This document shows, in pieces, positions 287 through 14,191 of a DNA stretch of 24,000 bases. How positions within the stretch are numbered: the stretch's first letter is position 1; every line of letters begins with the position of its first letter. This DNA comes from Natronospirillum sp. (lineage in GTDB: Bacteria > Pseudomonadota > Gammaproteobacteria > Pseudomonadales > Natronospirillaceae). The notes under the pieces were generated by a model. The model was not told the DNA's origin and did no database searches. It worked only from the letters and a program-made list of their open reading frames with translations. Made by a program: the position numbers and the translations under genes. The stretch is taken from the NCBI GenBank assembly GCA_049115955.1, contig JAGDZJ010000031.1:1-24000 (forward strand). The letters run 5' to 3'.

Positions 287-889
287 ATGCCACGCATTGA
301 TATTGAGCCCATTCGCCGCCGCCAGTTGATTAATGCGGTGTTAGAAGTCATCGGTGAGTACGGTTTTCAGGGCACTACCATGGGCCGCATCAGTGCACAG
401 TCGGGTATGTCGGTGGGCATTGTCAGCCACTATTTCGGCGGTAAGCAAGGTTTGCTCGAAGCGGCCATGCGTCATTTGTTGACTGAGTTGCACCAGGACC
501 TTATGAGCAACATTGCGAGCCGTTCCAGTTCGCCGCGTGATCGCTTGATGGCGATTGTAGAAACGAATTTTTCCAGCGTGCAGACCAATCCAAAAGCTGC
601 GCGTACTTGGTTGGTATTTTGGTCGCAGTCGGTACACGACCCCGAGCTGGCGCGCTTACAGCAGGTGAACGAACGTCGTTTGTACGCCAACCTGATTTAC
701 TCATTACGCCCTCTGCTGCCGGAAAGCTGGCTGCGTGGCACCGCACAAACCATCGCCGCTCTGATCGATGGTTTCTGGCTACGCGCCGCACTCAGCGGTG
801 GCCGTATCGATTCCGAGCAGGCCATGCGCCTGTGTAAAGCCTATATAGATCAGGTGCTGGCCGACGGTCAAAAGCATCGCTCTGTCTGA
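287..889 (+). CDS. betI: TetR-family transcriptional repressor BetI (choline-responsive)
   Basis: 200-aa ORF with an ATG start. It has an N-terminal TetR-type HTH ([52 protein letters not shown]). It sits directly upstream of betB and betA, and only 16 nt with a GAAGGAG RBS separate it from betB. Confidence 0.9.
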
Positions 890-905
890 TTTCGAAGGAG
901 TTTTC

Positions 906-2369
906 ATGTCTGACCTCACCCTGCATTCTTGGGTTAATGGTGCACCAGCGCCGACGACCTCCGGTAACACCTTTGATGTCATCAATCCCGCCACCGGCAA
1001 GACCATTTACCGTGTGGAGCAAGCCGATGAAGCGGTGATGGCGGCGGCCATAGAGTCTGCACAGCGTGGCTTTGAGGTGTGGTCGAAAACGCCCGCCATT
1101 GAACGCGCCCGCATTCTACGCCGTGCCGCCGATCTGCTGCGCGAGCATAATGATCGCCTGGCCGCCGTAGAAGTGCTGGATACCGGTAAACCATGGCAAG
1201 AAGCCAGCGTGGTCGACGTGGTGACGGGCGCGGACGCGATCGAATTCTTTGCGGGCGAAGCACCGGGATTAGAAGGCAACAGCCAACCCATCGGTAACGA
1301 CTTCTACTACACGCGGCGCGAGCCCTTGGGTATTTGTGCGGGCATCGGGGCGTGGAACTACCCGATGCAAATCGCCTGCTGGAAAGCCGCACCGGCGCTC
1401 GCGGCGGGTAACAGCATGATCTTCAAGCCTTCGGAAGAAACACCGCGCGGTGCCGTTGAGCTGGCGATGATCTTCCAACAAGCGGGCTTGCCCGACGGTG
1501 TGTTCAACGTGGTACAGGGTGACTACCGAGTGGGCCAGATGCTGACCGCCGCGCCCGAAATCGCCAAGGTGTCTTTCACCGGCGAAGCAGGAACGGGGCG
1601 CACGGTTATGGCCGATGCCGCACGCACGCTTAAATCTGTCACCATGGAGCTGGGCGGCAAGTCGCCACTGATCATCTTTGACGACGCCGACCTGGAAAAC
1701 GCTGTGTCGGGCGCCATGCTCGGTAACTTCTACACCCAGGGCGAAATCTGTACCAATGGTACAAGGGTATTTGTGCAACGCAGCATTTACGACGCGTTCT
1801 TGCAGCGCTTGTTAGAACGCACCCGAAATAATGTGGTGGCGGGCGACCCCATGCACCCCGACACCAACTTCGGCGCACTGATTTCAGCCGGGCATCTAGA
1901 AAAGGTGTTGGGCTTTATTGAACAAGGCAAAGCGGAAGGTGCCACCTGCGCCATTGGCGGTGAACGCTTAACCGCTGGCGCGTTGGCCGACGGGTATTTT
2001 GTTGCCCCCACGGTGTTCACCGAATGCACCGACGACATGACCATCGTGCAGGAAGAAATCTTTGGCCCGGTCATGACGGTGTTGGTGTTTGACGACGAAG
2101 AGGAAGTGATTGCGCGCGCCAACGACACCGAGTACGGCCTTGCTGCGGGCGTGTTCACACGCGATATTCAACGGGCCCACCGTGTTATTCATCAGTTAGA
2201 AGCCGGTATTTGTTGGATCAATGCTTACGGCAATTCACCCGCCGAGATGCCCGTAGGCGGCTACAAGCTGTCTGGTTTGGGCCGCGAAAACGGCCGCGAA
2301 ACACTTGCCCACTACACCCAAATTAAGTCCATTTATGTGGGCTTGGGCGATATCGACGCGCCCTTCTAA
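906..2369 (+). CDS. betB: Betaine-aldehyde dehydrogenase (NAD-dependent ALDH superfamily)
   Basis: 487-aa ORF with the ALDH catalytic Glu motif MELGGKSP and the Cys nucleophile motif [21 protein letters not shown] at 894-900. betI-betB-betA synteny. Confidence 0.95.
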
Positions 2370-2389
2370 ATTTCTGCATTGACCGCTAC

Positions 2390-2409
2390 CAGCCTGCCTC
2401 GGCGGGCTG
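2390..2409 (+). other. Intercistronic stem-loop between betB and betA
   Basis: CAGCCTGC-ctcg-GCGGGCTG forms an 8-bp stem with one G-U pair and a 4-nt loop. No T-tract follows, so it is more likely an mRNA stability or processing element than a terminator. Confidence 0.3.
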
Positions 2410-2442
2410 TTAGCACTTACTCACTCCGAGACAGATTTTGCT

Positions 2443-4110
2443 ATGACTTTTGATCAGATTCATGACTACATCATCGTTGGCACCGGCTCTGCGGGCTGCG
2501 TGCTGGCTAACCGCTTATCTGAAGACGCCGACGCGCGCGTGCTGGTATTAGAAGCAGGACGCAAAGACGATACGTGGAAAATCCACATGCCTGCCGCCCT
2601 GATGTACAACCTCAAGGGCGACCGCTACAACTGGTACTACCACACCGAACCGCAAGAACACATGAACCACCGCAAACTGTATTGGCCGCGCGGCAAGGTG
2701 TGGGGTGGCGGTTCGTCGTTGAACGCCATGGTGTACATTCGCGGCCACGCGTACGACTACGACCGCTGGGCCGAGGAAGGCGCGGAAGGTTGGCGCTATG
2801 CCGATATCCTGCCGTATTTTCGCAAGGCCGAAACGCGCGAACAGGGTGCGGACGACTATCGCGGTGGCGAAGGCCCGTTGAACGTGCACACGGGCGATGA
2901 GCCTAACCCCTTGTTTGATGCGTTCTTGCAAGCCACTCAGCAAGCGGGCTACCCGGCGACCGAAGACATGAACGGCTTCCAGCAGGAAGGCTTCGGCAAG
3001 ATGGACATGACCATCAAGCAAGGCAAGCGTTGGAATACCGCGCAAGCCTATTTGCGTCCGGTATTGGCGCGCCCGAATTTGAAGGCGGAAGTCGGAGCCA
3101 TGGTCACCCGTGTGCTGTTTGAAGGTCAGCGTGCGGTGGGTGTGGAATACCAACAAAACGGCAAAACCGTGCGTGTGCGCGCTGAACGCGAAGTGATTCT
3201 GTCGGGCGGCGCCATCAATTCACCCCAACTGCTGATGCTGTCTGGCATTGGCCCCGCTGAAGACTTAAAAGCGCTGGGCATTGAGGTCAAACAAGACCTA
3301 CCCGGTGTGGGGCAGAACCTGCAAGACCACCTTGAACTGTACGTGCAGCAAGCCTGTACGCAGCCCATCACCCTGTACAAGTACACCACCCAGCCGGGCA
3401 TGGCGTTGTCGGGCATGCAATGGTTCATCAATAACGATTGGGGCGCATGCCGTACCGCGCACTTGGAAGCGGGCGGTTTTATTCGTTCTGAGCCCGGCGT
3501 GCGTCACCCGGACATTCAGTACCATTTTCTGCCATCGCAGGTGATCGACCACGGGCGCAAGAACCCCGAGCTGCACGCCTACCAAGCGCACGTGGGACCG
3601 ATGCGTCCTACCAGCACGGGCTTTTTGAAGCTGCGTTCGAGCGACCCGACCGAGCACCCCTTGATTCAGCCGAACCTGTTGAGCACCGAGCGTGACCGCT
3701 GGGAAATGCGCCAGTCGGTGAAGCTAACGCGCGAGATCTTTGCTCAAGACGCCTTTAAACCCTTCCGTGGCGAAGAATACCTGCCCGGTAAAGATGTGCA
3801 GACCGATCAAGAAATTGATGCCTTTGTGCGTGCACACGCCGACAGCGCTTACCACCCTTCGTGCACCTGCAAAATGGGCGCAGCCAGCGACCCTATGGCG
3901 GTGGTGGATGCCGAAGCGCGGGTGTTTGGTATTGAAGGCTTACGCGTCGTCGACGCCAGTATTATGCCCAGCATTGTGAGCGGCAACTTAAATGCCCCCA
4001 CCATTATGCTGGCCGAAAAATGCGCGGACCACATTCGTGGCCGTGCGCCCCTGGCGCCATCCAGCGCGCCGGTCTGGGAACACCCGGAGTACCAGACTCA
4101 ACAACGATAA
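2443..4110 (+). CDS. betA: Choline dehydrogenase (GMC flavoprotein oxidoreductase)
   Basis: 555-aa ORF. N-terminal FAD fold YIIVGTGSAGCVLANRLSE. GMC signature GGGSSLNAMVYIRG. C-terminal active-site region AYHPSCTCKMG. Synteny with betI and betB. Confidence 0.95.
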   Translation: MTFDQIHDYIIVGTGSAGCVLANRLSEDADARVLVLEAGRKDDTWKIHMPAALMYNLKGDRYNWYYHTEPQEHMNHRKLYWPRGKVWGGGSSLNAMVYIRGHAYDYDRWAEEGAEGWRYADILPYFRKAETREQGADDYRGGEGPLNVHTGDEPNPLFDAFLQATQQAGYPATEDMNGFQQEGFGKMDMTIKQGKRWNTAQAYLRPVLARPNLKAEVGAMVTRVLFEGQRAVGVEYQQNGKTVRVRAEREVILSGGAINSPQLLMLSGIGPAEDLKALGIEVKQDLPGVGQNLQDHLELYVQQACTQPITLYKYTTQPGMALSGMQWFINNDWGACRTAHLEAGGFIRSEPGVRHPDIQYHFLPSQVIDHGRKNPELHAYQAHVGPMRPTSTGFLKLRSSDPTEHPLIQPNLLSTERDRWEMRQSVKLTREIFAQDAFKPFRGEEYLPGKDVQTDQEIDAFVRAHADSAYHPSCTCKMGAASDPMAVVDAEARVFGIEGLRVVDASIMPSIVSGNLNAPTIMLAEKCADHIRGRAPLAPSSAPVWEHPEYQTQQR

Positions 4111-4135
4111 TCCGGAACAGAGGAAGACTCATAAC

Positions 4136-5068
4136 ATGAATATGAAACACCTAACCACCGCCACAGCTTGCGTGCTGATGAGCGCCCCTATTACGGCCTG
4201 GAGCCAGCAATGCACTGACGTCCGCTTTTCTGATGTAGGCTGGACTGACATCACCGCCACCACGGCACTGGCCTCAGAAGTACTTGATGCCATCGGTTAC
4301 AACCCAACGGACCGTGTGTTGTCGGTACCGGTAACCTACCGTTCACTGGCTAATAACGACCTCGACGTCTTCTTGGGTAACTGGATGCCGACCATGGCAG
4401 CAGACATCGCCCCTTATCATGAAGACGGTACGGTTGAAACGCTGCGCGCGAACTTGGAAGGCGCCAAATACACACTGGCCGTCACCCAGACCGCCTACGA
4501 TGCAGGCTTGCAGAGCTTTGCCGACATCGCGCGTTTTTCCAGCGAGCTGAACGGTCGGATTTACGGCATTGAGCCAGGCAACGACGGCAACCGTTTAATT
4601 CAAGATATGATCGACGACAACGCCTTTGATTTAGGCGATTTCCGTCTGATGGAGTCGAGCGAAGCCGGTATGCTCAGTCAGGTAGCACGCGCTGTGCGAC
4701 GTGATGAGTGGATTGTCTTCTTGGGTTGGGAACCACACCCGATGAACGCCAATTTTGACCTTGTTTACCTTGAAGGCGGTGATGATTGGTTTGGGCCGGA
4801 TCTCGGCGGCGCGACTGTCTATACCAACGTGCGTGCAGGTTTCACCGAAGACTGCCCGAACTTGGGCACCTTCTTCAATAACCTGACGTTCACCTTAGAA
4901 ATGGAGAACGAGGTGATGGGCGCGATCATTAACGACGGACAAGACCCCGGCGTTGCGGCACGCACCTGGCTGACAGATAACCCCGAAGTGCTGACGGCAT
5001 GGCTGGACGGTGTAACCACACCCGCCGGCGAACCTGCTCTGCCAGTCGCTCAGGCGACGTTCCAGTAA
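4136..5068 (+). CDS. Glycine betaine/choline ABC transporter substrate-binding protein (ProX/OpuAC family), secreted
   Basis: I use the internal ATG at 4136, which has an AGGAAG RBS at 4121-4126. The tracked ORF start at 3992 would overlap betA by 119 nt. Signal peptide MNMKHLTTATACVLMSAPITAWS. OpuAC-type motifs VRFSDVGWTDITATT and DLDVFLGNWMP. Confidence 0.9.
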   Translation: MNMKHLTTATACVLMSAPITAWSQQCTDVRFSDVGWTDITATTALASEVLDAIGYNPTDRVLSVPVTYRSLANNDLDVFLGNWMPTMAADIAPYHEDGTVETLRANLEGAKYTLAVTQTAYDAGLQSFADIARFSSELNGRIYGIEPGNDGNRLIQDMIDDNAFDLGDFRLMESSEAGMLSQVARAVRRDEWIVFLGWEPHPMNANFDLVYLEGGDDWFGPDLGGATVYTNVRAGFTEDCPNLGTFFNNLTFTLEMENEVMGAIINDGQDPGVAARTWLTDNPEVLTAWLDGVTTPAGEPALPVAQATFQ

Positions 5069-5078
5069 CATCTCCTAT

Positions 5079-5098
5079 GGGCGTGCGTCAGCGCGCCC
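5079..5098 (+). terminator. GC hairpin after the binding-protein gene; possible partial terminator or attenuator
   Basis: GGGCGTGC-gtca-GCGCGCCC forms an 8-bp stem with one G-U pair, followed by TCATTTTCA. It lies 11 nt after the stop codon and 25 nt before the permease ATG. This is the usual position for hairpins that keep binding-protein mRNA in excess. Confidence 0.35.
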
Positions 5099-5122
5099 TC
5101 ATTTTCACCCTGAGGAGATGAT

Positions 5123-5968
5123 ATGTCTTGGTTCTTTGACCACAAACTGCCGGTCGGCCGTTGGATGGAAACCCTCTTAAACTGGTTTGTTGATAACGGC
5201 AGCCTGTTTTTTGATGCGGTATCCGACAACCTGTCCGACCTGATTTATGGCCTCACCGCCATTTTGCTGTGGTTCCCCCCGCTGCTACTGATCGCCCTGC
5301 TGACGGCACTGACCTTCGCCGTACAACGACGTTGGGGTTTAACGCTGTTTACCTTTATCAGTTTCTTGCTGATTCTTAATCTTGGGTATTGGACAGAAAC
5401 CATGGCGACCCTGTCATTGGTGCTGTACGCCACCTTGATCTGTGTGTTGTTCGGCCTGCCGATAGGCATCGTGGCGGCACATCATCCGCGCGTCTATCGT
5501 GTCCTGCAGCCGGTACTGGACTTGATGCAAACGATCCCGCCTTTTGTGTATCTCATCCCCACGCTGACGATGTTCGGTTTGGGCGTCGTGCCGGGGGTGA
5601 TCTCGACCGTTATTTTCGCCATTGCCGCGCCCATTCGACTGACGTATTTGGGTATCTCGCAGGTGCCGCAAGAGCTGCTGGAAGCCGGGCGTTCCTTTGG
5701 CTACACCAAGCGACAGTTGCTCGTGCATGTGGAATTGCCCGCAGCGATGAGCAGCATTGGTGCCGGTGTTACGCAGTGCATCATGCTGTCGCTGTCTATG
5801 GTGGTTATTGCGGCACTCGTGGGCGCTGATGGTCTTGGCGTACCAGTAGTCAGAGCCTTGAACACCGTTGATATTGCCAGCGGTTTTGAAGCAGGCATGG
5901 CCATTGTGTTGCTCGCCATCTGGCTTGATCGCTTGTTTAAGCAACACGTTCGACACGAGGCACACTAG
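5123..5968 (+). CDS. Glycine betaine/choline ABC transporter permease (ProW/OpuAB family)
   Basis: 281-aa ORF with a GAGGAG RBS and multiple hydrophobic helices. It carries a BPD-transporter EAA-like loop (LEAGRSFGYTKRQLLVHVELPAA). It sits between the binding-protein and ATPase genes. Confidence 0.9.
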   Translation: MSWFFDHKLPVGRWMETLLNWFVDNGSLFFDAVSDNLSDLIYGLTAILLWFPPLLLIALLTALTFAVQRRWGLTLFTFISFLLILNLGYWTETMATLSLVLYATLICVLFGLPIGIVAAHHPRVYRVLQPVLDLMQTIPPFVYLIPTLTMFGLGVVPGVISTVIFAIAAPIRLTYLGISQVPQELLEAGRSFGYTKRQLLVHVELPAAMSSIGAGVTQCIMLSLSMVVIAALVGADGLGVPVVRALNTVDIASGFEAGMAIVLLAIWLDRLFKQHVRHEAH

Positions 5969-5969
5969 T

Positions 5970-7157
5970 ATGATTAATATCAATAACGTATCCGTGGTGT
6001 TCGGCAAGCAACCAGAACGCGCCTTGGCGCTGATGGATCAAGGGCTGGGTCGCGATGCCATCAAAGAACAAACCGGCTTGGTACTGGGCGTTCAAGAGGC
6101 AAATTTGCGCGTTGAGCGCGGTGAAATCTGTGTGTTGATGGGGTTGTCCGGCTCTGGTAAGTCCAGCCTATTGCGCTGCATTAACGGCTTGAATTCAGTT
6201 ACCCGTGGCGAAGTTTGCATTGAGCACGAAGGCAGCAGCATCGATTTTGCGGCTGCCGATAGCAAAACTCAGCAGGACATTCGAACCAACCGGGTGTCCA
6301 TGGTGTTTCAGAGCTTTGCGTTGATGCCTTGGCTCACCGTAGAAGAGAACATTGCCTTTGGCTTACGCCAGCAGAATCTCAGCAAAACCGAACTGAAGCG
6401 CCGTATTGAACAGCAACTGACGTTGGTGGGCTTGGAAGAATGGCGTTCAGCCTACGCGCACGAGCTGTCGGGTGGCATGCGCCAACGCGTTGGCTTGGCA
6501 CGCGCACTGGCGACGGAATCGGACATTTTATTGATGGACGAGCCGTTTTCTGCCCTAGACCCGCTGATCCGCCATCAGTTGCAGGAAGAGCTGTTAGAGC
6601 TGCAAACCACGCTACGCAAGACCATTGTGTTCGTGAGTCATGACCTAGACGAAGCCCTGAAGCTTGGGAATAAGATCGTCATCATGAAAGACGGGCAAAT
6701 CGTGCAACAGGGCCGACCTGAACAGATCATCCTATCGCCTGCCGACGACTACGTTAAAACCTTCGTGGCCAATACGAATCCGCTGAATACGCTGCAAGCG
6801 CAGTCGGTTATGACGCACCTTAAAGACACGCCGGCCGATGCCAACAACAACCTGTGCGTCAGTAAGCGTTATGACATCTGGGTGATGACACAGGACAACC
6901 TGGCGGACACGCAAGTCACCATGGCGGGTAAAACCTACCAAACGCAGTCGTGGCAGCCGGGGCAACCCATTGACGCGTTACAGAAGCTACCCACGTGCAT
7001 ACCGGGCCGAACCCCCATGCGTGATGCGGTGGAGATCTGCTACGTGACGGGACACAACATTTTGGTGGAGCAGAATGGTCAGTTAACCGGCACGATCGGT
7101 GAGCGTGAGATATACCACACGCTGCTGAGCAAGCACTTAGCGGACGACTTGTTGTAG
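5970..7157 (+). CDS. Glycine betaine/choline ABC transporter ATP-binding protein with C-terminal CBS-like tail (ProV/OpuAA family)
   Basis: I use the ATG at 5970, 1 nt after the permease stop. The tracked start at 5868 would overlap the permease. Walker A GLSGSGKSS, ABC signature LSGGMRQRV, Walker B ILLMDEPFSALD. About 120 aa follow the ABC core, as in ProV. Confidence 0.9.
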   Translation: MININNVSVVFGKQPERALALMDQGLGRDAIKEQTGLVLGVQEANLRVERGEICVLMGLSGSGKSSLLRCINGLNSVTRGEVCIEHEGSSIDFAAADSKTQQDIRTNRVSMVFQSFALMPWLTVEENIAFGLRQQNLSKTELKRRIEQQLTLVGLEEWRSAYAHELSGGMRQRVGLARALATESDILLMDEPFSALDPLIRHQLQEELLELQTTLRKTIVFVSHDLDEALKLGNKIVIMKDGQIVQQGRPEQIILSPADDYVKTFVANTNPLNTLQAQSVMTHLKDTPADANNNLCVSKRYDIWVMTQDNLADTQVTMAGKTYQTQSWQPGQPIDALQKLPTCIPGRTPMRDAVEICYVTGHNILVEQNGQLTGTIGEREIYHTLLSKHLADDLL

Positions 7158-8201: not shown

Positions 8202-8810
8202 ATGAAACTGGCCCTGCGTATTATCGCCACGCTTGCCCTAGTTGCTGTGGTGTTTACCGGCTTGTATTTGAATCAAGGCGAAGGTCTTCTGGGCCAGTCG
8301 TTACCAGCCGACAGCCGCGCGCTGCTCTTGGTGTTGACCTCGTCGCTGTACGCGCTCTTATTGGCCATTCCTTTTGTGCCGGGTGTTGAACTGGGCTGGA
8401 TGATCATGGGGTTGTTTGGCCGCATGGGTATTTTGGCGGCATGGCTGAGCACGATATTGGGGCTGAGCTTGAGCTACTGGGTGGCTCGTCGCTTGTCTGA
8501 CCACCCGAAACTGCAACGCCTACAAGTAGCGCGCTCGGCGCTGTTGGAAACCCCTCGACATGAATTATCAATGAGCCAGCGTCTTTTCGCCTCTGGCGTG
8601 CGCTTGTATGACAAGCACCCCTACTTGTTTATCTTCGTCACCTTGAACTTGCCCGGCAATTGGCTGTTGGGTGGTGGTGGCGGTATTGCGGCTACCGCTG
8701 GCATCATGCCCAAGGTCGGTTACGGCCGTTTTGTGCTGACCTGTGCACTCGCCACCGGCATTGTGCCTGCGCTGTTGTGGTTGGGCTTGGCCAATATTCC
8801 TGTTAATTAA
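8202..8810 (+). CDS. Small polytopic membrane protein, function unknown (weak DedA/TVP38-like flavour)
   Basis: 202-aa ORF with an ATG 16 nt after the yihY-like stop and 4-5 hydrophobic helices. The motif AIPFVPGVELGWMIMGLFG loosely resembles the DedA/TVP38 re-entrant loop. The family assignment is not secure. Confidence 0.55.
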   Translation: MKLALRIIATLALVAVVFTGLYLNQGEGLLGQSLPADSRALLLVLTSSLYALLLAIPFVPGVELGWMIMGLFGRMGILAAWLSTILGLSLSYWVARRLSDHPKLQRLQVARSALLETPRHELSMSQRLFASGVRLYDKHPYLFIFVTLNLPGNWLLGGGGGIAATAGIMPKVGYGRFVLTCALATGIVPALLWLGLANIPVN

Positions 8811-9720
8811 TAAACCGCGCTTTCACCTTTTCGTTGATCTCCGCCACCGGCACAATAATCCCCAATTCCAGGGCGTTTCCAAAATCCGCATCGAAGACCG
8901 TTTCGCCACACCAAATGCCAGTCGACAATGACATGTAAGACTGCAACACCGGTGGGATGTTCATGTCATAAGGGGTTAATGAATCGCGCAGTTGGCGGAT
9001 ACGCTCGTCGGCGGCGTCGTTAGCTGACAGCGTCGGAGCGGCTTGTGTGGGTTCATAGCGGCAGGTATCGCGTGCTACCAGGTAGGGTTCTGGCGGGGCA
9101 TAGTGCGCCTGCATGGTGCTGACCAACAAGTCTCTGCCGGTGTTGTTCAGGGTCTGATACAGCGACACATTGCCAAAGAAGTACTGCACCTCAGGATGTT
9201 TGCGCAACAAAGCGCCCAAGCCTACCCAAGTGGCGAAGAATCCCAGCGCACCTTTTTTGGCGGCCCGGTTAACCACCGAACGGCCCAGTTCAATGGCATA
9301 GGGCAGGATGTTGCGCTGAAATGAAACCGAATAGTCGAACAGACCATAGGTACGCAGGCACTCGGGGCCAAAGACGGTAGCCTTAGCCCCCTGCTGATAA
9401 CGGTACATGGCGACCATTTCTTGGTGTTCGGGGTCCCACGCCACCAACTGCGAGTAGCACTGTTCGCCATAATCGCGATGATCGAGGTCCAGCTCGTCAC
9501 CTCGCCCGGCACCAACGGCGCGGAAACCCGCTTCACGCAGCCGCCCTATTTCCTGCATGGCGGTTGGGCATTCATCGCCGGTAAAGCTGTAAATATTCAG
9601 GCCACGAAATTGTGCCAGCGGCGTCAACGCGGCGAGTTCTTGCACAACACTGTTGGCGGTAGCGTTGGAGATGGCAATAGGGTCTGCTTGAGCAAAGGTC
9701 GGTTGAGGAGCGAGTGTCAT
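8803..9720 (-). CDS. OlsB-family GNAT N-acyltransferase (lyso-aminolipid / N-acyl amino acid synthase type; often annotated 'putative hemolysin')
   Basis: 305-aa ORF. Family-typical block EIGRLREAGFRAVGAGRGDELDLDHRDYGEQCYSQLVAWDPEHQEMVAMYRY. C-terminal block IPPVLQSYMSLSTGIWCGETVFDADFGNA. Its ATG overlaps the upstream gene's stop (ATGA at 9717-9720). Confidence 0.8.
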   Translation of the reverse strand: MTLAPQPTFAQADPIAISNATANSVVQELAALTPLAQFRGLNIYSFTGDECPTAMQEIGRLREAGFRAVGAGRGDELDLDHRDYGEQCYSQLVAWDPEHQEMVAMYRYQQGAKATVFGPECLRTYGLFDYSVSFQRNILPYAIELGRSVVNRAAKKGALGFFATWVGLGALLRKHPEVQYFFGNVSLYQTLNNTGRDLLVSTMQAHYAPPEPYLVARDTCRYEPTQAAPTLSANDAADERIRQLRDSLTPYDMNIPPVLQSYMSLSTGIWCGETVFDADFGNALELGIIVPVAEINEKVKARFIN

Positions 9721-10973
9721 GATGAAGTCTCCTTCAAGACAAGAGAGGACATAGACTGAGCGGGCGCTGGATGCGGACGCGTCAGCCGATCATAGTGCGC
9801 GCGGACGGCCGCCATGCGCTGCTGATCGTTCGGGGCAAGCTGTTCAAGTTCCTCGACAGTGATGGCCTCTCCCGTGCTCACACCAAAGGTGCGGGTGGCG
9901 GGTTTCAACAGCTCGCGGGGCAGCAACGCCATTTCGAGGTTCAGAGCCACATTGAAGCGCTGGCGCAAAGCCGCGACGCCATGAAACAACCGCGAATTCG
10001 TGCCTTCCAAATGGATGGGCACCAATGGGCGACCATAGCGTCGGGCCAGAGTCACAGGCATGCTGTGCCATTCAAAGTCGGTCAACTTGCCCTGTTGCTT
10101 ACGGGCGGTGCGACCGGCCGGGAACACTAAAATAGCGGCATCGGTGGCGAAGGCGGCGTGCAGATTACGCACTGACTGGCGCGAAGACCGATAGCGATCC
10201 ACCGGCACGACCAAGGACTTCATCGGTGGAATCAAGGTCAATAAATCAGTCACCACCACCTTCACTTCCGGATAGTAACTTTGTAACCAGGCCAGCAGAA
10301 TGAGTCCGTCTAAGCCACCGGTCGGGTGATTCGCAATAAATACCGGGCGCGCTGCGACTGCGGGGAGCATTGCGCCATCAGGCACCTGTGCGCTGACGCC
10401 CAAGCGCTGCAACACCTGCGCGGGAAAACGGCGCTCGGGTGTCCAGGTTCGCCACCCCTCACGCTGGGTTGACCAAGGTAAGAAAAAATACTGCCGCAGC
10501 AGGGGAATCCACTGCGGCAGTAAGGAGGAAGTACTGAACGGCGAGCTGGGTGCTACCGTCTCCGACCAAGCCTGCTCTGACCAACGCCAGCACAGCGGCT
10601 CTTGGGTTTGCCAAAAAACAAAGACCACGCAGGGCGCGAAATCCATTGGCGCAGTATTCTGCAACTGCAAGCGCACGGCCATCGGCGTGGCGCAGGTACT
10701 CAGGGCGCGTACCAAGCGGCCACGGCTCTGGGTAGCGGTGGTGGTCCGGTGTTGTTGCTCAGCGGCGTAATCGTTCAGCAAACAAATCGTCAGTCCGTGG
10801 TCGTTGGTGGCCAGCCAAAAGCCATCACCTTCGGGGTCACGCGGGGCCAGTATCTTGCGCCCCCCCTCATTGAACACAGACGGCGGCTCGGCTTCGATAC
10901 GACTGCACCGTTCATCCCGGCTGAACACAATATTCAATGCGCCTTGGTGATGTTGCCAACTTAGGGTGCACAT
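9717..10973 (-). CDS. Fusion protein: N-terminal NRDE/TANGO2-like (Cys2 Ntn-type) domain plus C-terminal PlsC/OlsA-like lysolipid O-acyltransferase domain
   Basis: 418-aa ORF.
- N-terminus: MCTLSW...FSRDE (aa 17-21), APRDPEGDGFWLATNDHGLTICLLN (aa 43-67) and SRGRLV (aa 83-88). These follow the NRDE-family pattern MC..., NRDE, GGRD..GGTWLG...LTN, SRG.L.
- C-terminus: VFIANHPTGGLDGLILL (aa 211-227; nt 10305-10334 verified by hand) and ILVFPAGRTARK, typical of the acyltransferases paired with OlsB-family genes.
- The ORF is confident; the domain calls have confidence about 0.6. Confidence 0.8.
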   Translation of the reverse strand: MCTLSWQHHQGALNIVFSRDERCSRIEAEPPSVFNEGGRKILAPRDPEGDGFWLATNDHGLTICLLNDYAAEQQHRTTTATQSRGRLVRALSTCATPMAVRLQLQNTAPMDFAPCVVFVFWQTQEPLCWRWSEQAWSETVAPSSPFSTSSLLPQWIPLLRQYFFLPWSTQREGWRTWTPERRFPAQVLQRLGVSAQVPDGAMLPAVAARPVFIANHPTGGLDGLILLAWLQSYYPEVKVVVTDLLTLIPPMKSLVVPVDRYRSSRQSVRNLHAAFATDAAILVFPAGRTARKQQGKLTDFEWHSMPVTLARRYGRPLVPIHLEGTNSRLFHGVAALRQRFNVALNLEMALLPRELLKPATRTFGVSTGEAITVEELEQLAPNDQQRMAAVRAHYDRLTRPHPAPAQSMSSLVLKETSS

Positions 10974-11521
10974 AACGACTGCCCCGCAAACTGCGACGTT
11001 TCATAGCGGCGGGTAGACGGGTTAACGCCAAAACCCGGTGGCATGGCACCGCCCTGTATCACCACCAGCATCTCCACCAAGGCAAAGTGATGAATGCTGT
11101 GTTGCGTGAGAAACACCAGTTCGCGGGCCAAGGTGGTTGTGACCTGCGCATTGCCATCGTCGGTGCAGTAGTCCAGCGTGAGCGTCTGGTCACCCTGTTG
11201 CATGTGTGGTGCCAACGCTTTCTGGACACGCTGCAACAACGTCAAAGCATGCTGTGGGTCGGCTTCGACGAGCGGGTCACGTTGGCGGTGTTCGTAGTCG
11301 ATGTCGGTGCCACCGGATAAGGCGGCGGACAAGGCGAGATAATGATCCAAGATATGCCGCACATGGCGGCCCGGCGTCTGCCCGTGTGGCAGGGACTCAC
11401 AACGGCCGCTGTACTCCGTGTGGCTCACTTGCGCCAGCCAGTGCTCTAGGCGCTGCATGACACCGATGGCTTCGCGCCACAACACGCTCATGTCGGCCCG
11501 TGTCCGTTGGTTGCTGTCCAT
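10961..11521 (-). CDS. DinB-superfamily (DinB_2-like) putative metalloenzyme
   Basis: 186 aa from the ATG at 11521, which has a GAGGGA RBS 6 nt upstream. The tracked start at 11524 is a TTG. Putative His triad HVRHILDHY ... HSIHHFAL in a roughly 180-aa helical protein. Its stop overlaps the next gene's start by 13 nt. Confidence 0.7.
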   Translation of the reverse strand: MDSNQRTRADMSVLWREAIGVMQRLEHWLAQVSHTEYSGRCESLPHGQTPGRHVRHILDHYLALSAALSGGTDIDYEHRQRDPLVEADPQHALTLLQRVQKALAPHMQQGDQTLTLDYCTDDGNAQVTTTLARELVFLTQHSIHHFALVEMLVVIQGGAMPPGFGVNPSTRRYETSQFAGQSLCAP

Positions 11522-11618
11522 CAATCGTCCCTCGGCTAGGCTTCAAACTCTCCTTTTGACCAGCGAACAATCAATTAGTTCAAACTCCCGTTTCTCGGGC
11601 GAAGCCGCCAGAAATTAC

Positions 11619-11627
11619 TGTTATACT
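11619..11627 (+). promoter_or_regulatory. Candidate extended -10 promoter element (TGTTATACT) for mgtE
   Basis: TG-n-TATACT lies 64 nt upstream of the mgtE ATG. There is no convincing -35, which is tolerated by extended -10 promoters. Confidence 0.3.
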
Positions 11628-11649
11628 TTGTAACCAGAAATACGCGCGA

Positions 11650-11667
11650 GGCGACAAGCACGTCGCC
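11650..11667 (+). other. 5' leader hairpin GGCGAC-aagcac-GTCGCC upstream of mgtE
   Basis: A perfect 6-bp stem with a 6-nt loop lies 13 nt upstream of the GGGGAAGAG RBS region. Confidence 0.3.
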
Positions 11668-11690
11668 GCCACACAGCAGGGGAAGAGCTT

Positions 11691-13046
11691 ATGGCTTACA
11701 CAGTCATCGCCGACGAACTCAGAGAAGCCATGGCACAGGACGATGTGCAGACCATGGAAAAGCTGGTTGCCGATATGCAGCCCGCTGACTTTGCCGAATT
11801 CATTCAGGAACACCCTGCTGAAACCAGCTTAAAATTACTGTCGTGTCTGCCCATCAAGCAGCGTGCGGAAACCTTCGGTTATTTCAGTGAGAATGACCAG
11901 CGCGAACTTGCCGAACACATGGACGAGTCTGCTTTAGCCAACCTGTTCATTCACATGAACTCGGACGAACGCGCCGACTTATTCAACCTGCTGCAAGACG
12001 AACTGAAAGCCGATTTGATGCGCCGTTTAGCGCGCAACGAACGCGAAGATTTGCGACGCCTGTCGAGCTATGAAGAAGGCACCGCCGGGGCCATCATGAC
12101 CAGCGACTATGTGGCCGTGCCCGCTCAGTCGACCATTGCACAAGCCTTCGAGATTGTCCGGTCGACCGCGCCGGATGCCGAAACCATTTACGACATCTAC
12201 AGTATCGACCATATGGGCCGACTGATGGGTGCCACATCGCTGCGCGAACTGATTCTGGCCCGCTCTACGCAGCGGCTGGAAGCCATCATGACCACCGAGC
12301 TGATCAGCGCGACGGTTGACACCCCGCAGGAAGAAGTGGCGCGTTTGATTTCACGTTACGACTTACTGGCGTTGCCGATCATCGACAACGATGCACGCTT
12401 AGTCGGCATCGTGACCTACGATGACGCGATGGACGTCGCCGAGCAAGAAGCCACAGAAGATATCCACAAGGGTGCCTCGGTTGGACGCTTGGACGACGGC
12501 TTTGGCCGAGCACGTTTGCGTGACCTGTACCGCACGCGGATTGTCTGGCTGGTACTGCTGGTGTTCGGCAACTTGTTTTCCGGCATGGGAATCGCATTTT
12601 TTGAAGACACTATTGCCGCTCATGTGGCCTTGGTCTTCTTCTTACCGTTGTTGATTGGCAGCGGCGGTAACGCAGGTGCACAGGCCTCTACATTGATGGT
12701 GCGGGGTATCGCCACGGGCGACGTTGGGGTGTCGGATTGGGCGCGTCTGCTCGGCCGTGAACTGTTGGTCGCTCTGGCATTGGGACTGACCATGGCCTTG
12801 GCGGTATCACCCATTGGCTTCTGGCGCGGTGGCGAAGACATCGCCTTCGTGGTGGCTGCGGCGATGATTAGTGTCGTTGTTCTGGGTAGCCTGATTGGTA
12901 TTTGCCTGCCCTTTATCCTCAACCACATCGGTTGGGACCCGGCCACGGCGAGCGCACCACTGGTGACCACCCTGATCGATGCGTGCGGGGTTATCATTTA
13001 TTTCAGCATTGCGGCGGCGGTGCTGGATCTGCCTGCGCTCTTTTAG
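11691..13046 (+). CDS. mgtE: Magnesium transporter MgtE
   Basis: 451-aa ORF with an N-terminal acidic MgtE-N region, a CBS pair (AIMTSDYVAV ... LPIIDNDARLVGIVTYDD), and a C-terminal 5-TM domain carrying the MgtE motif LIGSGGNAGAQAS. Confidence 0.95.
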   Translation: MAYTVIADELREAMAQDDVQTMEKLVADMQPADFAEFIQEHPAETSLKLLSCLPIKQRAETFGYFSENDQRELAEHMDESALANLFIHMNSDERADLFNLLQDELKADLMRRLARNEREDLRRLSSYEEGTAGAIMTSDYVAVPAQSTIAQAFEIVRSTAPDAETIYDIYSIDHMGRLMGATSLRELILARSTQRLEAIMTTELISATVDTPQEEVARLISRYDLLALPIIDNDARLVGIVTYDDAMDVAEQEATEDIHKGASVGRLDDGFGRARLRDLYRTRIVWLVLLVFGNLFSGMGIAFFEDTIAAHVALVFFLPLLIGSGGNAGAQASTLMVRGIATGDVGVSDWARLLGRELLVALALGLTMALAVSPIGFWRGGEDIAFVVAAAMISVVVLGSLIGICLPFILNHIGWDPATASAPLVTTLIDACGVIIYFSIAAAVLDLPALF

Positions 13047-13105
13047 CGTATTCACAGCCATTCAATCATTCATCATTGGCGTTGGCTAAGACACAGGATC
13101 ACGAC

Positions 13106-14191
13106 ATGAAGTTTAAGGGCATAGCGGACTACTCCCACGCGCAGGCAGACAAAACCGGTATTCTGATTACTAACTTGGGCACCCCTGACGCCGCCGAAAG
13201 CGGCGCGGTGCGTCGGTACTTGCGCGAATTTTTGTCCGATTCCCGTGTGGTGGAAATCCCCAAAGCCATTTGGTGGTTTATTCTCAACGGCATTATTTTG
13301 GCCATTCGCCCGGCACGCTCCGCCAAAAATTACCGCACGGTATGGACCGAACGCGGCTCGCCGCTGCTGTATCACACGGCCGATCAGTGCGAGGCCGTGC
13401 GCGCATACATGAAGGGCAAATACGGTGACGACGTGGTGGTGGAATTTGCCATGCGTTACGGCAATCCGTCGGTGACCTCCGTGCTCGAACGCATGCAGCA
13501 GCAAGGTGTGCGTCGCTTATTGGTACTGCCGATGTACCCACAATATTCGGCCACCACTACTGCTTCGACCTTTGACGCAGTGGCGGCGGATTTCGCCAAG
13601 CGCCGCTGGATTCCCGAGCTGCGCTTTATCAATCATTACCACGATTTCGAACCCTACATTGACGCCATGGCGGCGCACATTCAGGCGTATCAATCCGAGC
13701 ACGGCAAGCCGGAAAAACTGGTGTTGTCATACCACGGTATTCCGAAACGCAATTTGCTGGAAGGCGACCCTTACCACTGCGAGTGCTATAAGACCTCTCG
13801 TTTGTTAACCGAGAAGCTGGGCCTGACGCGGGATGACGTCATCACGACGTTTCAGTCACGATTCGGCAAACAGGAATGGTTGAAGCCGTATACCGACGCC
13901 ACCATGCAGCAACTGGGTGCCGACGGCGTGAAATCCATTCAGGTGTTCTGCCCGGGCTTTCCATCGGACTGTTTGGAAACTATTGAAGAGATCGGCGAAG
14001 AGAACCGTGAATACTTCGAAGAAGCAGGTGGCGAGCACTTTGGTTATATTCCGGCGCTGAACGCCACTCCAGGGCACATTGACGCGTTGACCGCGTTACT
14101 GGAACAGCATTTGAAAGGCTGGCAGCCGTTGGCTACCCAAGACAAAAGCACGAGCGTGCGGGAGCACGCTCGGTTGGCTGCCACGAAATAA
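13106..14191 (+). CDS. hemH: Ferrochelatase
   Basis: I use the ATG at 13106 (MKFKGIADY...). The tracked start at 12902 would overlap mgtE by 145 nt. Motifs GILITNLGTPDA, LVLPMYPQYSATT, LVLSYHGIP (catalytic His) and FCPGFPSDCLETIEEI. Confidence 0.95.
   Translation: MKFKGIADYSHAQADKTGILITNLGTPDAAESGAVRRYLREFLSDSRVVEIPKAIWWFILNGIILAIRPARSAKNYRTVWTERGSPLLYHTADQCEAVRAYMKGKYGDDVVVEFAMRYGNPSVTSVLERMQQQGVRRLLVLPMYPQYSATTTASTFDAVAADFAKRRWIPELRFINHYHDFEPYIDAMAAHIQAYQSEHGKPEKLVLSYHGIPKRNLLEGDPYHCECYKTSRLLTEKLGLTRDDVITTFQSRFGKQEWLKPYTDATMQQLGADGVKSIQVFCPGFPSDCLETIEEIGEENREYFEEAGGEHFGYIPALNATPGHIDALTALLEQHLKGWQPLATQDKSTSVREHARLAATK

Follow-up and report, generated by a model that had tools for sequence, protein, structure and literature searches.

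A recurrent fusion of a TANGO2-like domain to a predicted lyso-aminolipid O-acyltransferase and its internally deleted copy in Natronospirillum sp.

Deficiency of TANGO2 causes a lethal metabolic disease in children, and what the protein does biochemically is contested, with proposals of acyl-CoA binding, a Cys-Ntn hydrolase activity and haem trafficking. Purified TANGO2 binds acyl-CoA through its NRDE motif and shows no LPLAT activity of its own, and its loss raises lysophospholipids (PMC11867700); a set of catalytic residues has also been proposed (PMC13044924). Here, we analysed a protein that joins a TANGO2-like domain to an acyltransferase, encoded in a 24,000-nt stretch of Natronospirillum sp. 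DNA (the window) and publicly recorded as MFY0665969.1, 'MAG: NRDE family protein [Natronospirillum sp.]'. Like human TANGO2 (8sv7, 9bwa) and the bacterial NRDE/DUF833 proteins (HtpA SO0126; CV2077, 3gvz), it matches PF05742, starts with Met-Cys and carries the (N/S)RDE, L-N and R-G motifs, with a four-layer Cys-Ntn-like fold in a full-length orthologue. Unlike TANGO2, to which it is about 12% identical and alignable by sequence in the N-terminal half only (8sv7, E 1.7e-5), it tentatively has Arg160 for Lys166 and Ser for Asn157, it is covalently linked to an acyltransferase, and the window copy lacks the last helix and three strands. A profile search with the full-length fusion did not reach TANGO2.

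For the lipid enzymes, the closest described system is the Bacteroides gene pair GlsB/GlsA (NF053696/NF053697), which performs N- and then O-acylation and likewise combines PF13444 with PF19576. GlsA and GlsB are the best NCBIfam matches of the fusion and of the neighbouring GNAT, at 163 and 214 bits against cut-offs of 260 and 300. In contrast to GlsB/GlsA, the acyltransferase (AT) gene precedes the GNAT gene, NRDE and DinB-like modules are added, and positions 1-50 of the GlsA profile have no counterpart in the window AT. The ornithine/lysine-lipid synthase OlsF contains the same two catalytic domain families; at our locus, unlike in OlsF, AT and GNAT are encoded separately, with NRDE fused at the AT N-terminus. 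The matches to the OlsF equivalog (NF052615), 137 bits for the fusion against the OlsF N-half and 159 bits for the GNAT, stay under its cut-off of 620.

Two further comparisons concern the fold. IAT (2x1d/2x1e), the second-best structural match of the N-domain of the Salinispirillum orthologue P0002 (E 1e-7), is a Cys-Ntn enzyme that takes up the acyl group of acyl-CoA as an acyl-enzyme and then passes it on, a chemical precedent for the mechanism we propose below. It differs in that its precursor self-cleaves to expose the Cys, whereas NRDE exposes Cys2 by Met removal, in having no sequence similarity and in its substrate class. Judged from the model, the choloylglycine-hydrolase-type Cys-Ntn amidases bile-salt hydrolase (BSH), NAAA and acid ceramidase appear to share the class of fold and the geometry of the catalytic site. 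They act on N-acyl amides whose amine part is glycine, taurine, ethanolamine or sphingosine, compounds that are chemically near N-acyl-amino-acid lipids; unlike the fusion, these amidases are not known to be AT-fused, and they are undetectable by sequence and have other substrate pockets.

Table 1. Features of the fusion gene and its neighbours in the window
Feature	Position	Strand	Remarks
NRDE(TANGO2-like)-acyltransferase fusion ORF	9717..10973	(-)	418 aa, ATG start
NRDE/TANGO2-like remnant	10434..10973	(-)	aa 1-180; Pfam match aa 1-90
Acyltransf_2 remnant (predicted GlsA/OlsF-N-type lyso-aminolipid O-acyltransferase)	9720..10433	(-)	aa 181-418
Deletion junction	10427..10440	(-)	codon 180 (E) / codon 181 (R), at 10434/10433
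Terminator-like hairpin within the fusion ORF	10489..10522	(-)	14-bp stem, -25 kcal/mol, U-run after
GlsB/OlsB-like amino-acid N-acyltransferase (PF13444)	8803..9720	(-)	305 aa
DinB-like protein, predicted four-helix bundle	10961..11524	(-)	187 aa

The fusion and its two halves

An earlier note on this DNA had described the ORF as a single gene that fuses an NRDE-family domain to an acyltransferase. Its boundaries were exact (Table 1), and every motif it quoted is located in the translation. The NRDE half contains MCTLSW (aa 1-6), (F)SRDE (aa 17-21), PRDPEGDGFW (aa 44-53), CLLN (aa 64-67) and SRGRLV (aa 83-88), and the acyltransferase half contains NHPTGGLDG (aa 215-223; 10305-10331) and FPAGRTARK (aa 284-292; 10098-10124), both intact.

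Is the fusion one gene or two genes joined by chance? Database comparison recovered the PF05742+PF19576 architecture in about 30 protein clusters, 523-551 aa in length, from soda-lake and alkaliphilic Gammaproteobacteria and from Spirochaetes, and isolate genomes, including Salinispirillum marinum, Alkalimonas amylolytica and Alishewanella, encode it as a single ORF. With single ORFs in about 30 independent clusters and in isolates, the one-gene view stands; only one Logan contig (L002) has the fusion split, by a 1-nt indel. The full-length proteins (about 530-546 aa) place the TANGO2-like Cys-Ntn domain at the extreme N-terminus, followed by a linker of about 20 aa and a GlsA/OlsF-type O-acyltransferase. 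The NRDE domain is always N-terminal, in keeping with the need of an Ntn enzyme for the free α-amine of its Cys after Met removal. That the NRDE part is simply the normal N-terminus of this acyltransferase subfamily is ruled out, since the region is missing from OlsF and from the AT-only members (GlsA profile, 267 positions; P0024, P0030 and P0042-50 at 271-307 aa). The fusion is real and recurrent. The more distant database matches of the window protein are OlsF-type PF19576+PF13444 fusions. As to whether the architecture had been catalogued, PF05742 plus acyltransferase is already present in databases, as 'NRDE family protein' at NCBI and in UniRef entries, and we found no paper describing it in the literature searched.

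The assignment of the N-terminal half to the NRDE family is carried by a significant PF05742 match (32.8 bits against a cut-off of 22.6, E 1e-7), in which aa 1-90 cover profile positions 1-93 of 257, and by the fold of a full-length orthologue. PF05742 is matched by 27 of the 29 aligned full-length relatives, with a best E of 2.6e-15 and matches reaching up to profile 1-200. Used as a query, the N-terminal 178 aa matched 2,397 representative proteins, 808 of them at E<=1e-10; almost all were stand-alone, 235-265 aa long and aligned from residue 1. The putative catalytic positions are all kept in the window copy, namely Cys2 (codon 10968-10970), SRDE (aa 18-21; 10911-10922), Asn67, Arg84-Gly85, Ser149 and Arg160; SRDE has Ser for Asn, most family members having NRDE. 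The clade-invariant residues C2, R19, D20, E21, N67, R84, G85 and R160 align with R26/D27/E28, N75 and R88/G89 of TANGO2. The sequence alignment of the fusion clade with 8sv7 ends at TANGO2 residue 125, and it is by motif spacing only that the near-invariant Ser149 and the invariant Arg160 fall where TANGO2 Asn157 and Lys166 would be expected. Within PF05742, the fused NRDE domains form a divergent branch.

Structure prediction, which the earlier note had put forward as a check, gave the TANGO2/Cys-Ntn fold for the N-domain of the full-length orthologue. The AlphaFold (AF2) model of P0002, which is 88% identical, reached a pLDDT of 88.9 and a pTM of 0.90. In Foldseek its N-domain matched TANGO2 (8sv7, E 5e-8, TM 0.58; 9bwa) and also resembled IAT (2x1d/2x1e), CV2077 (3gvz), BSH and acid ceramidase, and its C-domain matched PlsC (5kym) and GPAT (1k30).

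This PlsC fold, the catalytic motifs and the PF19576 Acyltransf_2 match (110 bits against a cut-off of 27, aa 207-380) bear out the reading of the C-terminal half as an acyltransferase; PF01553 matched with 27.9 bits. By its profile matches, we assign this half as a predicted GlsA/OlsF-type lyso-aminolipid O-acyltransferase. The GlsA score (NF053697, profile 51-253 matched) is under the equivalog cut-off, and the protein is therefore related to GlsA rather than an equivalog.

A 384-nt deletion in the window copy

The earlier note had cautioned that the NRDE part was short and perhaps truncated, and we found the cause. Relative to all full-length relatives, the window copy has a clean in-frame internal deletion of 384 nt (128 aa), corresponding to aa 181-308 of P0002 from Salinispirillum marinum, with a microhomology of 5-7 nt (GCGCC) flanking the junction. 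The deletion removes part of the helix 179-187 and the strands 205-216, 219-226 and 237-242 of the NRDE domain (P0002 numbering), the interdomain linker and four N-terminal helices of the acyltransferase, together with the clade-invariant TVS motif and near-invariant H, M-x-R and Y residues. PF19576 is thus covered over profile 69-243 only, against 2-244 in P0002, and the deleted helical segment (Pfam profile about 2-43) is kept in P0002 and in all AT-only and DinB-AT relatives. A complete four-layer alpha-beta-beta-alpha domain takes about 240-260 aa, of which the window copy has 180 aa left; it is a deletion derivative of a PF05742 member and not an intact member.

The deletion allele is known from a single MAG contig (one cluster of one member). 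Measured against the intact orthologue, dN/dS is low for each half, at 0.10 and 0.14, with no relaxation visible. The perfectly preserved frame, the low dN/dS and the single contig speak against an impaired allele. In the lineage of the window copy, NRDE decay is repeated: the fusion is frameshifted in L002, NRDE is degenerate in P0027, with loss of Cys2, and in P0032, and in Natronospirillum operosum (P0037) a direct DinB-AT fusion stands in place of NRDE.

How should this allele be read? We think that it is probably recent and function-impairing and not a designed 'mini' version. It seems improbable that the gap arose in assembly or binning, or marks a minority variant of the population, with a real gene encoding a full-length fusion of about 546 aa, even if the allele comes from the one MAG contig behind MFY0665969.1, its dN/dS shows no relaxation and neither the junction 24-mer nor the flanking 25-mer had a match in JGI metagenome contigs. 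The microhomology is too short for de Bruijn collapse, which needs identity of k-mer length, the deletion is exactly in frame, and the same region carries the independent lesions listed above (L002, P0027/P0032, P0037); in addition, the strong hairpin (Table 1), which lies about 55 nt upstream of the junction and is conserved in two Saccharospirillaceae orthologues, could promote slippage. More of a contender, but still doubtful, is a truncated protein that remains a working O-acyltransferase or a minimal NRDE-AT, the deletion being neutral or an adaptive streamlining. The reading frame is unbroken and neither module has lost a catalytic motif, both halves are under purifying selection, translational coupling to both neighbours persists, and NAAA naturally lacks two strands of the TANGO2 sheet, so that some strands are dispensable in the superfamily. 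This has to be set against the clade-invariant residues within the deleted segment and the AT N-terminal helices, which every other member keeps, the AT-only ones included. The model of the window copy (pLDDT 71, pTM 0.53) also loses confidence exactly at the active-site elements, falling below 50 at Cys2, RDE, the S149 loop and the junction, in what is an uncontrolled comparison, as its alignment was shallower (13 sequences versus 29 for P0002).

A conserved cassette and its possible chemistry

The fusion always lies in a cassette of the order DinB-like, NRDE-AT fusion, GlsB-like N-acyltransferase, translationally coupled and conserved in Saccharospirillaceae, Alkalimonas, an ENA MAG and Spirochaetaceae. 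The DinB-like stop overlaps the fusion start by 13 nt, and the GlsB-like start overlaps the fusion stop by 4 nt (ATGA), with an AAGGAG Shine-Dalgarno sequence upstream; this adjoining PF13444 gene agrees with the amino-lipid operon context proposed earlier, and the pairing of AT and PF13444 genes is conserved in loci L001-L006. The DinB-like gene, the conserved first gene of the cassette, probably starts at the ATG at 11521. It scored 23.8 against a cut-off of 23 for PF05163 and 23.9 against 24.8 for PF12867, and its His54/57/61 and His142/145/146 are invariant in seven distant orthologues.

The DinB-like gene is the steadiest partner of NRDE. Among 80 DinB-anchored genomes, 24 have NRDE directly downstream, AT-fused in six, and 18 of these 24 loci additionally encode aminolipid acyltransferases or a VTT/DedA-ATP-grasp protein. 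The order OlsB-like, OlsA-like, DinB-like occurs in 14 loci, and an OlsF-like gene lies directly 5' of the DinB-like gene in two genomes (L078, L081). Eleven OlsBA-DinB loci have no NRDE. NRDE is dispensable for the pathway core, as seen in these 11 loci, in P0037 and P0027 and in AT-only spirochaetes, an observation that counts against an acyl-handling role.

By analogy with the characterised GlsB/GlsA, OlsB/OlsA and OlsF systems, the GNAT would make an N-(3-hydroxyacyl)-amino acid, a lyso-aminolipid, onto which the acyltransferase half would then esterify a second fatty acid. We speculate, with confidence a little short of even, that the NRDE domain and the DinB-like protein form an accessory acyl-handling module of aminolipid pathways. 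NRDE would bind a fatty-acyl thioester, either acyl-CoA or acyl-ACP, or carry the acyl group on Cys2 for a short time, and would present or select it for the fused O-acyltransferase. Such a role has three precedents, the acyl-enzyme chemistry of IAT, the NRDE-dependent binding of acyl-CoA by TANGO2 and the lysolipid rise on TANGO2 loss. For OlsF-type enzymes, the acyl donors have yet to be determined (PMC12971839). Against the mechanism, PlsC-type enzymes normally draw on acyl-ACP or acyl-CoA with no carrier in between. More tentatively still, DinB-like and NRDE could make up a hitherto unrecognised accessory module of two components that serves N-acyl-amino-acid lipid pathways in bacteria and has been taken up by at least three synthase types (GlsB/GlsA-OlsF, OlsB/OlsA and alpha/beta-hydrolase-VTT/DedA-ATP-grasp), with its NRDE welded to the O-acyltransferase in one lineage. 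The explanation as a whole, combining the cassette, acyl handling by NRDE and an impaired window allele, we consider reasonably probable.

Ntn hydrolases characteristically cleave amides, which favours a different activity, in which NRDE would not handle the acyl donor but act as an amidase or transamidase on the N-acyl amide of lyso-aminolipids or N-acyl amino acids, in editing, remodelling or turnover. We judge this rather unlikely. The characterised Cys-Ntn fold relatives (BSH, acid ceramidase, NAAA) all cleave fatty- or steroid-acyl amides, BSH and IAT also transfer acyl groups to amines, NRDE co-occurs with three kinds of amide-forming enzyme (GlsB-type GNAT, OlsB-type GNAT and the ATP-grasp fusion), its dispensability suits an editing or remodelling role, and Arg160 would correspond to the Arg that true Ntn hydrolases carry at the place of Lys166 in TANGO2. 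Fusing a hydrolase to the consumer of its own substrate would, however, set up a futile cycle, except in the case of a transamidase; the equivalent of the oxyanion Asn157 is seemingly Ser149, judged by motif spacing only, and acyl-CoA is the sole demonstrated ligand of TANGO2 (PMC11867700). Far less credible is a haem-binding or trafficking module like Shewanella HtpA, which would make the AT linkage uninformative on lipid chemistry. Haem binding by HtpA/TANGO2 has been reported (PMC10470608), and the ferrochelatase gene hemH (12902-14191) is found two genes from the fusion, both in the window and in L001/L002. This proximity is confined to Saccharospirillaceae and does not extend to the loci of Alkalimonas, the spirochaetes and the ENA MAG, the partners that are conserved are lipid enzymes, and the haem role is disputed, crystallography having found haem binding to be non-specific (PMC12782551, PMC13044924).

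Meaning for the TANGO2 superfamily

The earlier note had taken the fusion as a 'Rosetta-stone' link between NRDE/TANGO2 proteins and acyl lipids. Our analysis supports this interpretation in an amended form that must include the DinB-like partner; none of the three outcomes that the note had named as refuting it was observed. The recurrent fusion, together with its repeated occurrence within aminolipid clusters of two or three independent kinds, constitutes independent genomic evidence for an acyl-lipid role; as the fused clade is distant in sequence, transfer to human TANGO2 is indirect. While the architecture was already annotated in databases, the deletion in the window, the repeated NRDE decay, the DinB-like partnership and the OlsB/OlsA and VTT-ATP-grasp contexts are new here.

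For bacterial lipid biology, the analysis flags the DinB-like and NRDE genes as unstudied accessories of aminolipid clusters and points to the large hydrolase-DedA-ATP-grasp protein that these clusters contain. The fusion and its cluster contexts also parallel what is seen in humans, an increase in lysophospholipids despite the absence of LPLAT activity in TANGO2 itself. If the two-component module is true, it would give the TANGO2 superfamily its first functional assignment from gene context, as a Cys-Ntn enzyme that acts on fatty-acyl thioesters or amides beside a lysolipid acyltransferase, and would offer a tractable bacterial system for why TANGO2 loss leads to lysolipid accumulation in humans.

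A deletion derivative of a recurrent fusion

The reading frame for which the earlier note had proposed a fusion of an NRDE/TANGO2-like domain to an acyltransferase was borne out on the minus strand as a protein of 418 aa, and all motifs quoted there were located (aa 1-6, 17-21, 44-53, 64-67, 83-88, 215-223 and 284-292). Its first 90 residues match the TANGO2 family PF05742 above the cut-off (profile 1-93 of 257). In an exhaustive HMMER scan, aa 1-178 alone match 2,397 representative proteins, 808 of them at E<=1e-10; nearly all are stand-alone proteins of 235-265 aa whose alignment starts at their own residue 1, and sampled relatives belong to PF05742 themselves. Thus, the N-terminal part is a bona fide NRDE-family domain and not a chance string of motifs. 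An ordinary N-terminal extension of the acyltransferase subfamily was ruled out, as acyltransferase-only relatives and GlsA lack this part. The C-terminal part scores below the NCBIfam cut-offs of both GlsA and OlsF and is therefore related to both enzymes but the equivalog of neither, so these scores assign no head-group amino acid.

Is the fusion a recurrent architecture? A search of 5.8 billion proteins returned about 30 clusters combining PF05742 and PF19576, every one of 523-551 aa, with full-length hosts in Salinispirillum, Alkalimonas, Alishewanella, Arsukibacterium, a Bacterioplanes MAG and soda-lake Spirochaetaceae. The NRDE-acyltransferase fusion is real and recurrent, and the window copy is a deleted version of it. 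Whether the combination had already been catalogued, a point raised earlier, can be answered: such proteins are present and named in sequence databases, the window protein itself as MFY0665969.1 ('MAG: NRDE family protein [Natronospirillum sp.]', one contig). Every genus that hosts the fusion lives in soda lakes or alkaline habitats. The window also holds a complete osmoprotectant block, which is consistent with a haloalkaliphilic host.

In the alignment, a contiguous 128 aa present in every full-length relative is missing from the window protein, and comparison with the 87% identical Salinispirillum marinum gene resolved a deletion of exactly 384 nt, in frame, that falls between codons 180 and 181. 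The caution that the N-terminal part was unusually short and perhaps truncated is resolved by this internal deletion. The junction is flanked by GCGCC microhomology only, which is shorter than a k-mer assembly collapse would need. A single MAG is the sole source of the allele; the junction 24-mer and the flanking 25-mer were both missing from the JGI metagenome contigs, a scan that is uninformative and offers no independent confirmation, as that collection does not contain the strain. Values of dN/dS against the intact orthologue (0.10 for the N-terminal and 0.14 for the C-terminal part) are similar to those of neighbouring genes, so the deletion is recent or the product still used; as a test of relaxed selection they were discarded, since neighbour-like values cannot tell when the deletion arose. 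The window gene derives by deletion from a PF05742+PF19576 member, and neither its NRDE nor its acyltransferase module is a complete domain.

Coordinates of the fusion gene, its domains and neighbours, and of features in compared loci
Feature	Position	Strand	Remarks
Osmoprotectant block	window 287-7157	+	betI-betB-betA (choline to glycine betaine), then OpuA-type ABC transporter
Membrane ORF	window 8202-8810	+	202 aa; convergent with GlsB-like gene, 8-nt overlap
GlsB-like N-acyltransferase (PF13444)	window 8803-9720		downstream of fusion; 4-nt ATGA overlap, AAGGAG Shine-Dalgarno
NRDE-acyltransferase fusion	window 9717-10973	-	
PF05742 TANGO2	aa 1-90		32.8 bits, E 1e-7; cut-off 22.6
PF19576 Acyltransf_2	aa 207-380		110 bits; cut-off 27
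PF01553	aa 209-321		27.9 bits; cut-off 23
NCBIfam GlsA	aa 183-382		163 bits; cut-off 260
NCBIfam OlsF (N-half)	aa 185-412		137 bits; cut-off 620
Deletion junction	window 10434/10433		
Terminator-like hairpin	window 10489-10522	-	inside fusion ORF; 14-bp stem, -25 kcal/mol, then TATTTTTTCT
DinB-like gene	window 10961-11524		upstream of fusion; 13-nt overlap
Ferrochelatase (hemH)	window 12902-14191	+	two genes from fusion; likewise in L001 and L002
DUF547 gene	L001:6626-7453; L002:3623-4471		between mgtE and DinB-like gene
Split fusion orthologue	L002:5019-6676		Logan SRR23593236; ORFs of 280 and 289 aa
DinB-acyltransferase fusion P0037	L006:6001-7461		N. operosum
Hydrolase-VTT-ATP-grasp protein, examples	L048:5542-8085; L069:6245-8824; L060:6048-7793		

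Structural losses and repeated damage to the NRDE domain

The full-length Salinispirillum protein gave a confident AlphaFold2 model (pLDDT 88.9, pTM 0.90), which implies a defined interdomain arrangement. In Foldseek comparisons with the PDB, its N-domain matched human TANGO2 (8sv7, E 5e-8, TM 0.58; also 9bwa), acyl-CoA:isopenicillin-N acyltransferase (IAT; 2x1d/e, 1e-7), the bacterial NRDE protein CV2077 (3gvz), bile-salt hydrolases (BSH) and acid ceramidase, and its C-domain matched PlsC (5kym) and GPAT (1k30, 1iuq). On this model the deleted segment corresponds to residues 181-308 and takes out most of helix 179-187, the Ntn-sandwich strands 205-216, 219-226 and 237-242, the linker, and the four helices 264-302 with which the acyltransferase module begins (Pfam profile about 2-43) and which all acyltransferase-only and DinB-acyltransferase relatives keep. 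A TVS motif invariant in the clade, together with a near-invariant H, M-x-R and Y, also falls inside it. The putative catalytic positions (C2, R19, D20, E21, N67, R84, G85, S149 and R160) all lie upstream and are kept. The model of the window protein itself was poor (pLDDT 71, pTM 0.53), with confidence below 50 precisely at Cys2, RDE, the S149 loop and the junction; a shallower alignment lies behind this model, so its comparison with the Salinispirillum model is no more than suggestive.

The NRDE part has been damaged repeatedly within the Natronospirillum/Salinispirillum lineage. In the Logan contig (L002), one of the two closest relatives' loci, a single-base indel in the NRDE C-terminal region splits the orthologous fusion; this is an error of sequencing or else a third lesion that hit the domain independently. 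Two proteins of 497-499 aa from Natronospirillum MAGs (P0027 and P0032) are degenerate fusions whose NRDE motif is lost (LSSRDS and LSSHE) and whose NRDE domain lacks its C-terminal half; in P0027, Cys2 has gone as well (MDALTW). P0037 of N. operosum, and likewise P0035, has no NRDE and joins the DinB-like domain straight to the acyltransferase, a second, independent Rosetta-stone fusion that ties the DinB-like domain to the same enzyme. With NRDE deleted in the window and frameshifted, degenerate or replaced elsewhere in this lineage, the domain is thus an accessory of the acyltransferase and not a requirement for it.

The terminator-like hairpin within the fusion gene covers codons about 151-166 and lies some 55 nt upstream of the junction. 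Both closest relatives keep it with one wobble-compatible change, in genes that differ by 13-16% overall; Alkalimonas lacks it. The hairpin may act as an internal attenuator, or may be a hotspot of slippage that would account for the lesions in this region.

Linkage to aminolipid genes

The order DinB-like gene, fusion, GlsB-like N-acyltransferase gene recurs in Salinispirillum, the Logan contig, Alkalimonas, an ENA MAG and a spirochaete MAG, and the small upstream proteins are homologous across cassettes, with six invariant histidines. When the cassette region was scanned for promoters, terminators and Pho boxes, no Pho box was found, and promoter-like sites were no more frequent than chance.

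The 202-aa membrane ORF has a weak VTT/DedA-domain match (18.6 bits, under cut-off); VTT domains recur beside DinB-NRDE modules elsewhere, and also in locus L004 and cluster 13. A DUF547 gene accompanies the cassette in the two closest relatives and lies close to it in both spirochaete MAGs; it was ruled out as a cassette member, being found in just 3 of the 80 loci anchored on the DinB-like gene plus L002. Its presence in both Saccharospirillaceae and Spirochaetes hints at a possible block transfer. The gene is wholly missing from the window, tblastn detecting no remnant at 11525-11690, and its absence is a second gene-content difference from the closest relatives beside the window cassette.

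How widely is NRDE linked to these genes? The DinB-like alignment had 144 hits when one genome for each GTDB species was scanned, and purpose-built HMMs were applied to 80 loci. NRDE lies directly downstream of the DinB-like gene in 24 of the 80, fused to the acyltransferase in 6 and stand-alone in 18; the stand-alone loci span Psychromonas, Desulfobulbaceae, Opitutaceae, Puniceicoccaceae, Flavobacteriales, Thermoanaerobaculia, Phycisphaerales and Gemmatimonadales. An OlsB-like GNAT, an OlsA-like PlsC-type acyltransferase and the DinB-like gene follow one another in 14 loci, in some with NRDE behind them; two loci have an OlsF-like gene directly upstream of the DinB-like gene, one reads DinB, acyltransferase, GNAT without NRDE, and in 36, mostly Halomonadaceae, the DinB-like gene stands alone. 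In 18 of the 24 loci with NRDE, aminolipid acyltransferases and/or a VTT-ATP-grasp protein also occur; NRDE and the DinB-like partner are thus tied to N-acyl-amino-acid lipid genes through one gene fusion and through proximity to at least two synthase types that are evolutionarily independent. A DinB-like gene also precedes P0121, the stand-alone NRDE protein closest to the fusion (47% identity). Another, P0122, has neither DinB nor lipid neighbours, so the association is not universal. Searches of the accessible literature library found no published link of TANGO2/NRDE or DinB to aminolipids or their genes.

OlsB/OlsA-type loci usually end in a large protein of 600-860 aa with alpha/beta-hydrolase, VTT/DedA and ATP-grasp domains. 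Across many phyla, in about 27 of loci L009-L088, this uncharacterised protein (about 580-860 aa overall) is the next gene after DinB-like or DinB-NRDE; it may be a novel N-acyl-amino-acid/aminolipid synthase, head-group ligase or flippase. About 29 Halomonadaceae loci (Halomonas, Vreelandella, Chromohalobacter; L010-L036 etc.) carry the same DinB-like subfamily without NRDE or acyltransferase and with their own conserved neighbours, a rhodanese-like protein among them; the DinB-like protein therefore has a role independent of NRDE.

A possible role for NRDE

Domain identities, order, conservation and linkage were observed; for the catalytic steps, we infer from the characterised GlsB/GlsA, OlsB/OlsA and OlsF that the GNAT would make a lyso-aminolipid, which the acyltransferase would O-acylate. 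We tentatively favour acyl-donor handling as the role of NRDE, a reading we hold at a little under even chances: the domain may bind acyl-CoA or acyl-ACP, or form an acyl-Cys2 intermediate, and would then feed the acyl group to the fused acyltransferase. We favour it because gene fusion usually joins consecutive or interacting steps, because IAT is a chemical precedent, and because the NRDE domain is invariably N-terminal, as an Ntn nucleophile needs. A further reason is that purified TANGO2 binds acyl-CoA via its NRDE motif and that its loss raises lysophospholipids, yet TANGO2 has no LPLAT activity (PMC11867700). The main rival, amidase or transamidase activity towards the N-acyl amide, fits both the chemistry of BSH, NAAA and ceramidase and the association of NRDE with three kinds of amide-forming enzymes; we regard it as doubtful. 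A haem role, considered in light of the disputed haem trafficking by TANGO2/HtpA, is unlikely: the proximity of hemH was rejected as support, being lineage-specific and not conserved in other fusion-bearing lineages.

A clade profile aligned with 8sv7 (E 1.7e-5) places RDE, L-N and R-G on TANGO2 R26/D27/E28, T74/N75 and R88/G89, which are the residues put forward as the Cys-Ntn active site (PMC13044924). In PDB sequence searches, 8sv7 was reached only by a profile including stand-alone relatives; the full-length fusion profile gave no TANGO2 match, and the fused clade is ~12% identical to the human protein. The closest known systems are TANGO2/HtpA/CV2077 by domain family, GlsBA and OlsF by pathway, and IAT/BSH/NAAA by chemistry. 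The covalent NRDE-acyltransferase link and its acyl-lipid reading, as first suggested from the sequence, are supported at the family level. Since the fused clade is remote from human TANGO2, the finding does not prove TANGO2 function but supports an acyl-lipid view of the superfamily, and its weight lies in the family-level fusion and the wider DinB-NRDE-aminolipid linkage rather than in the damaged window copy.
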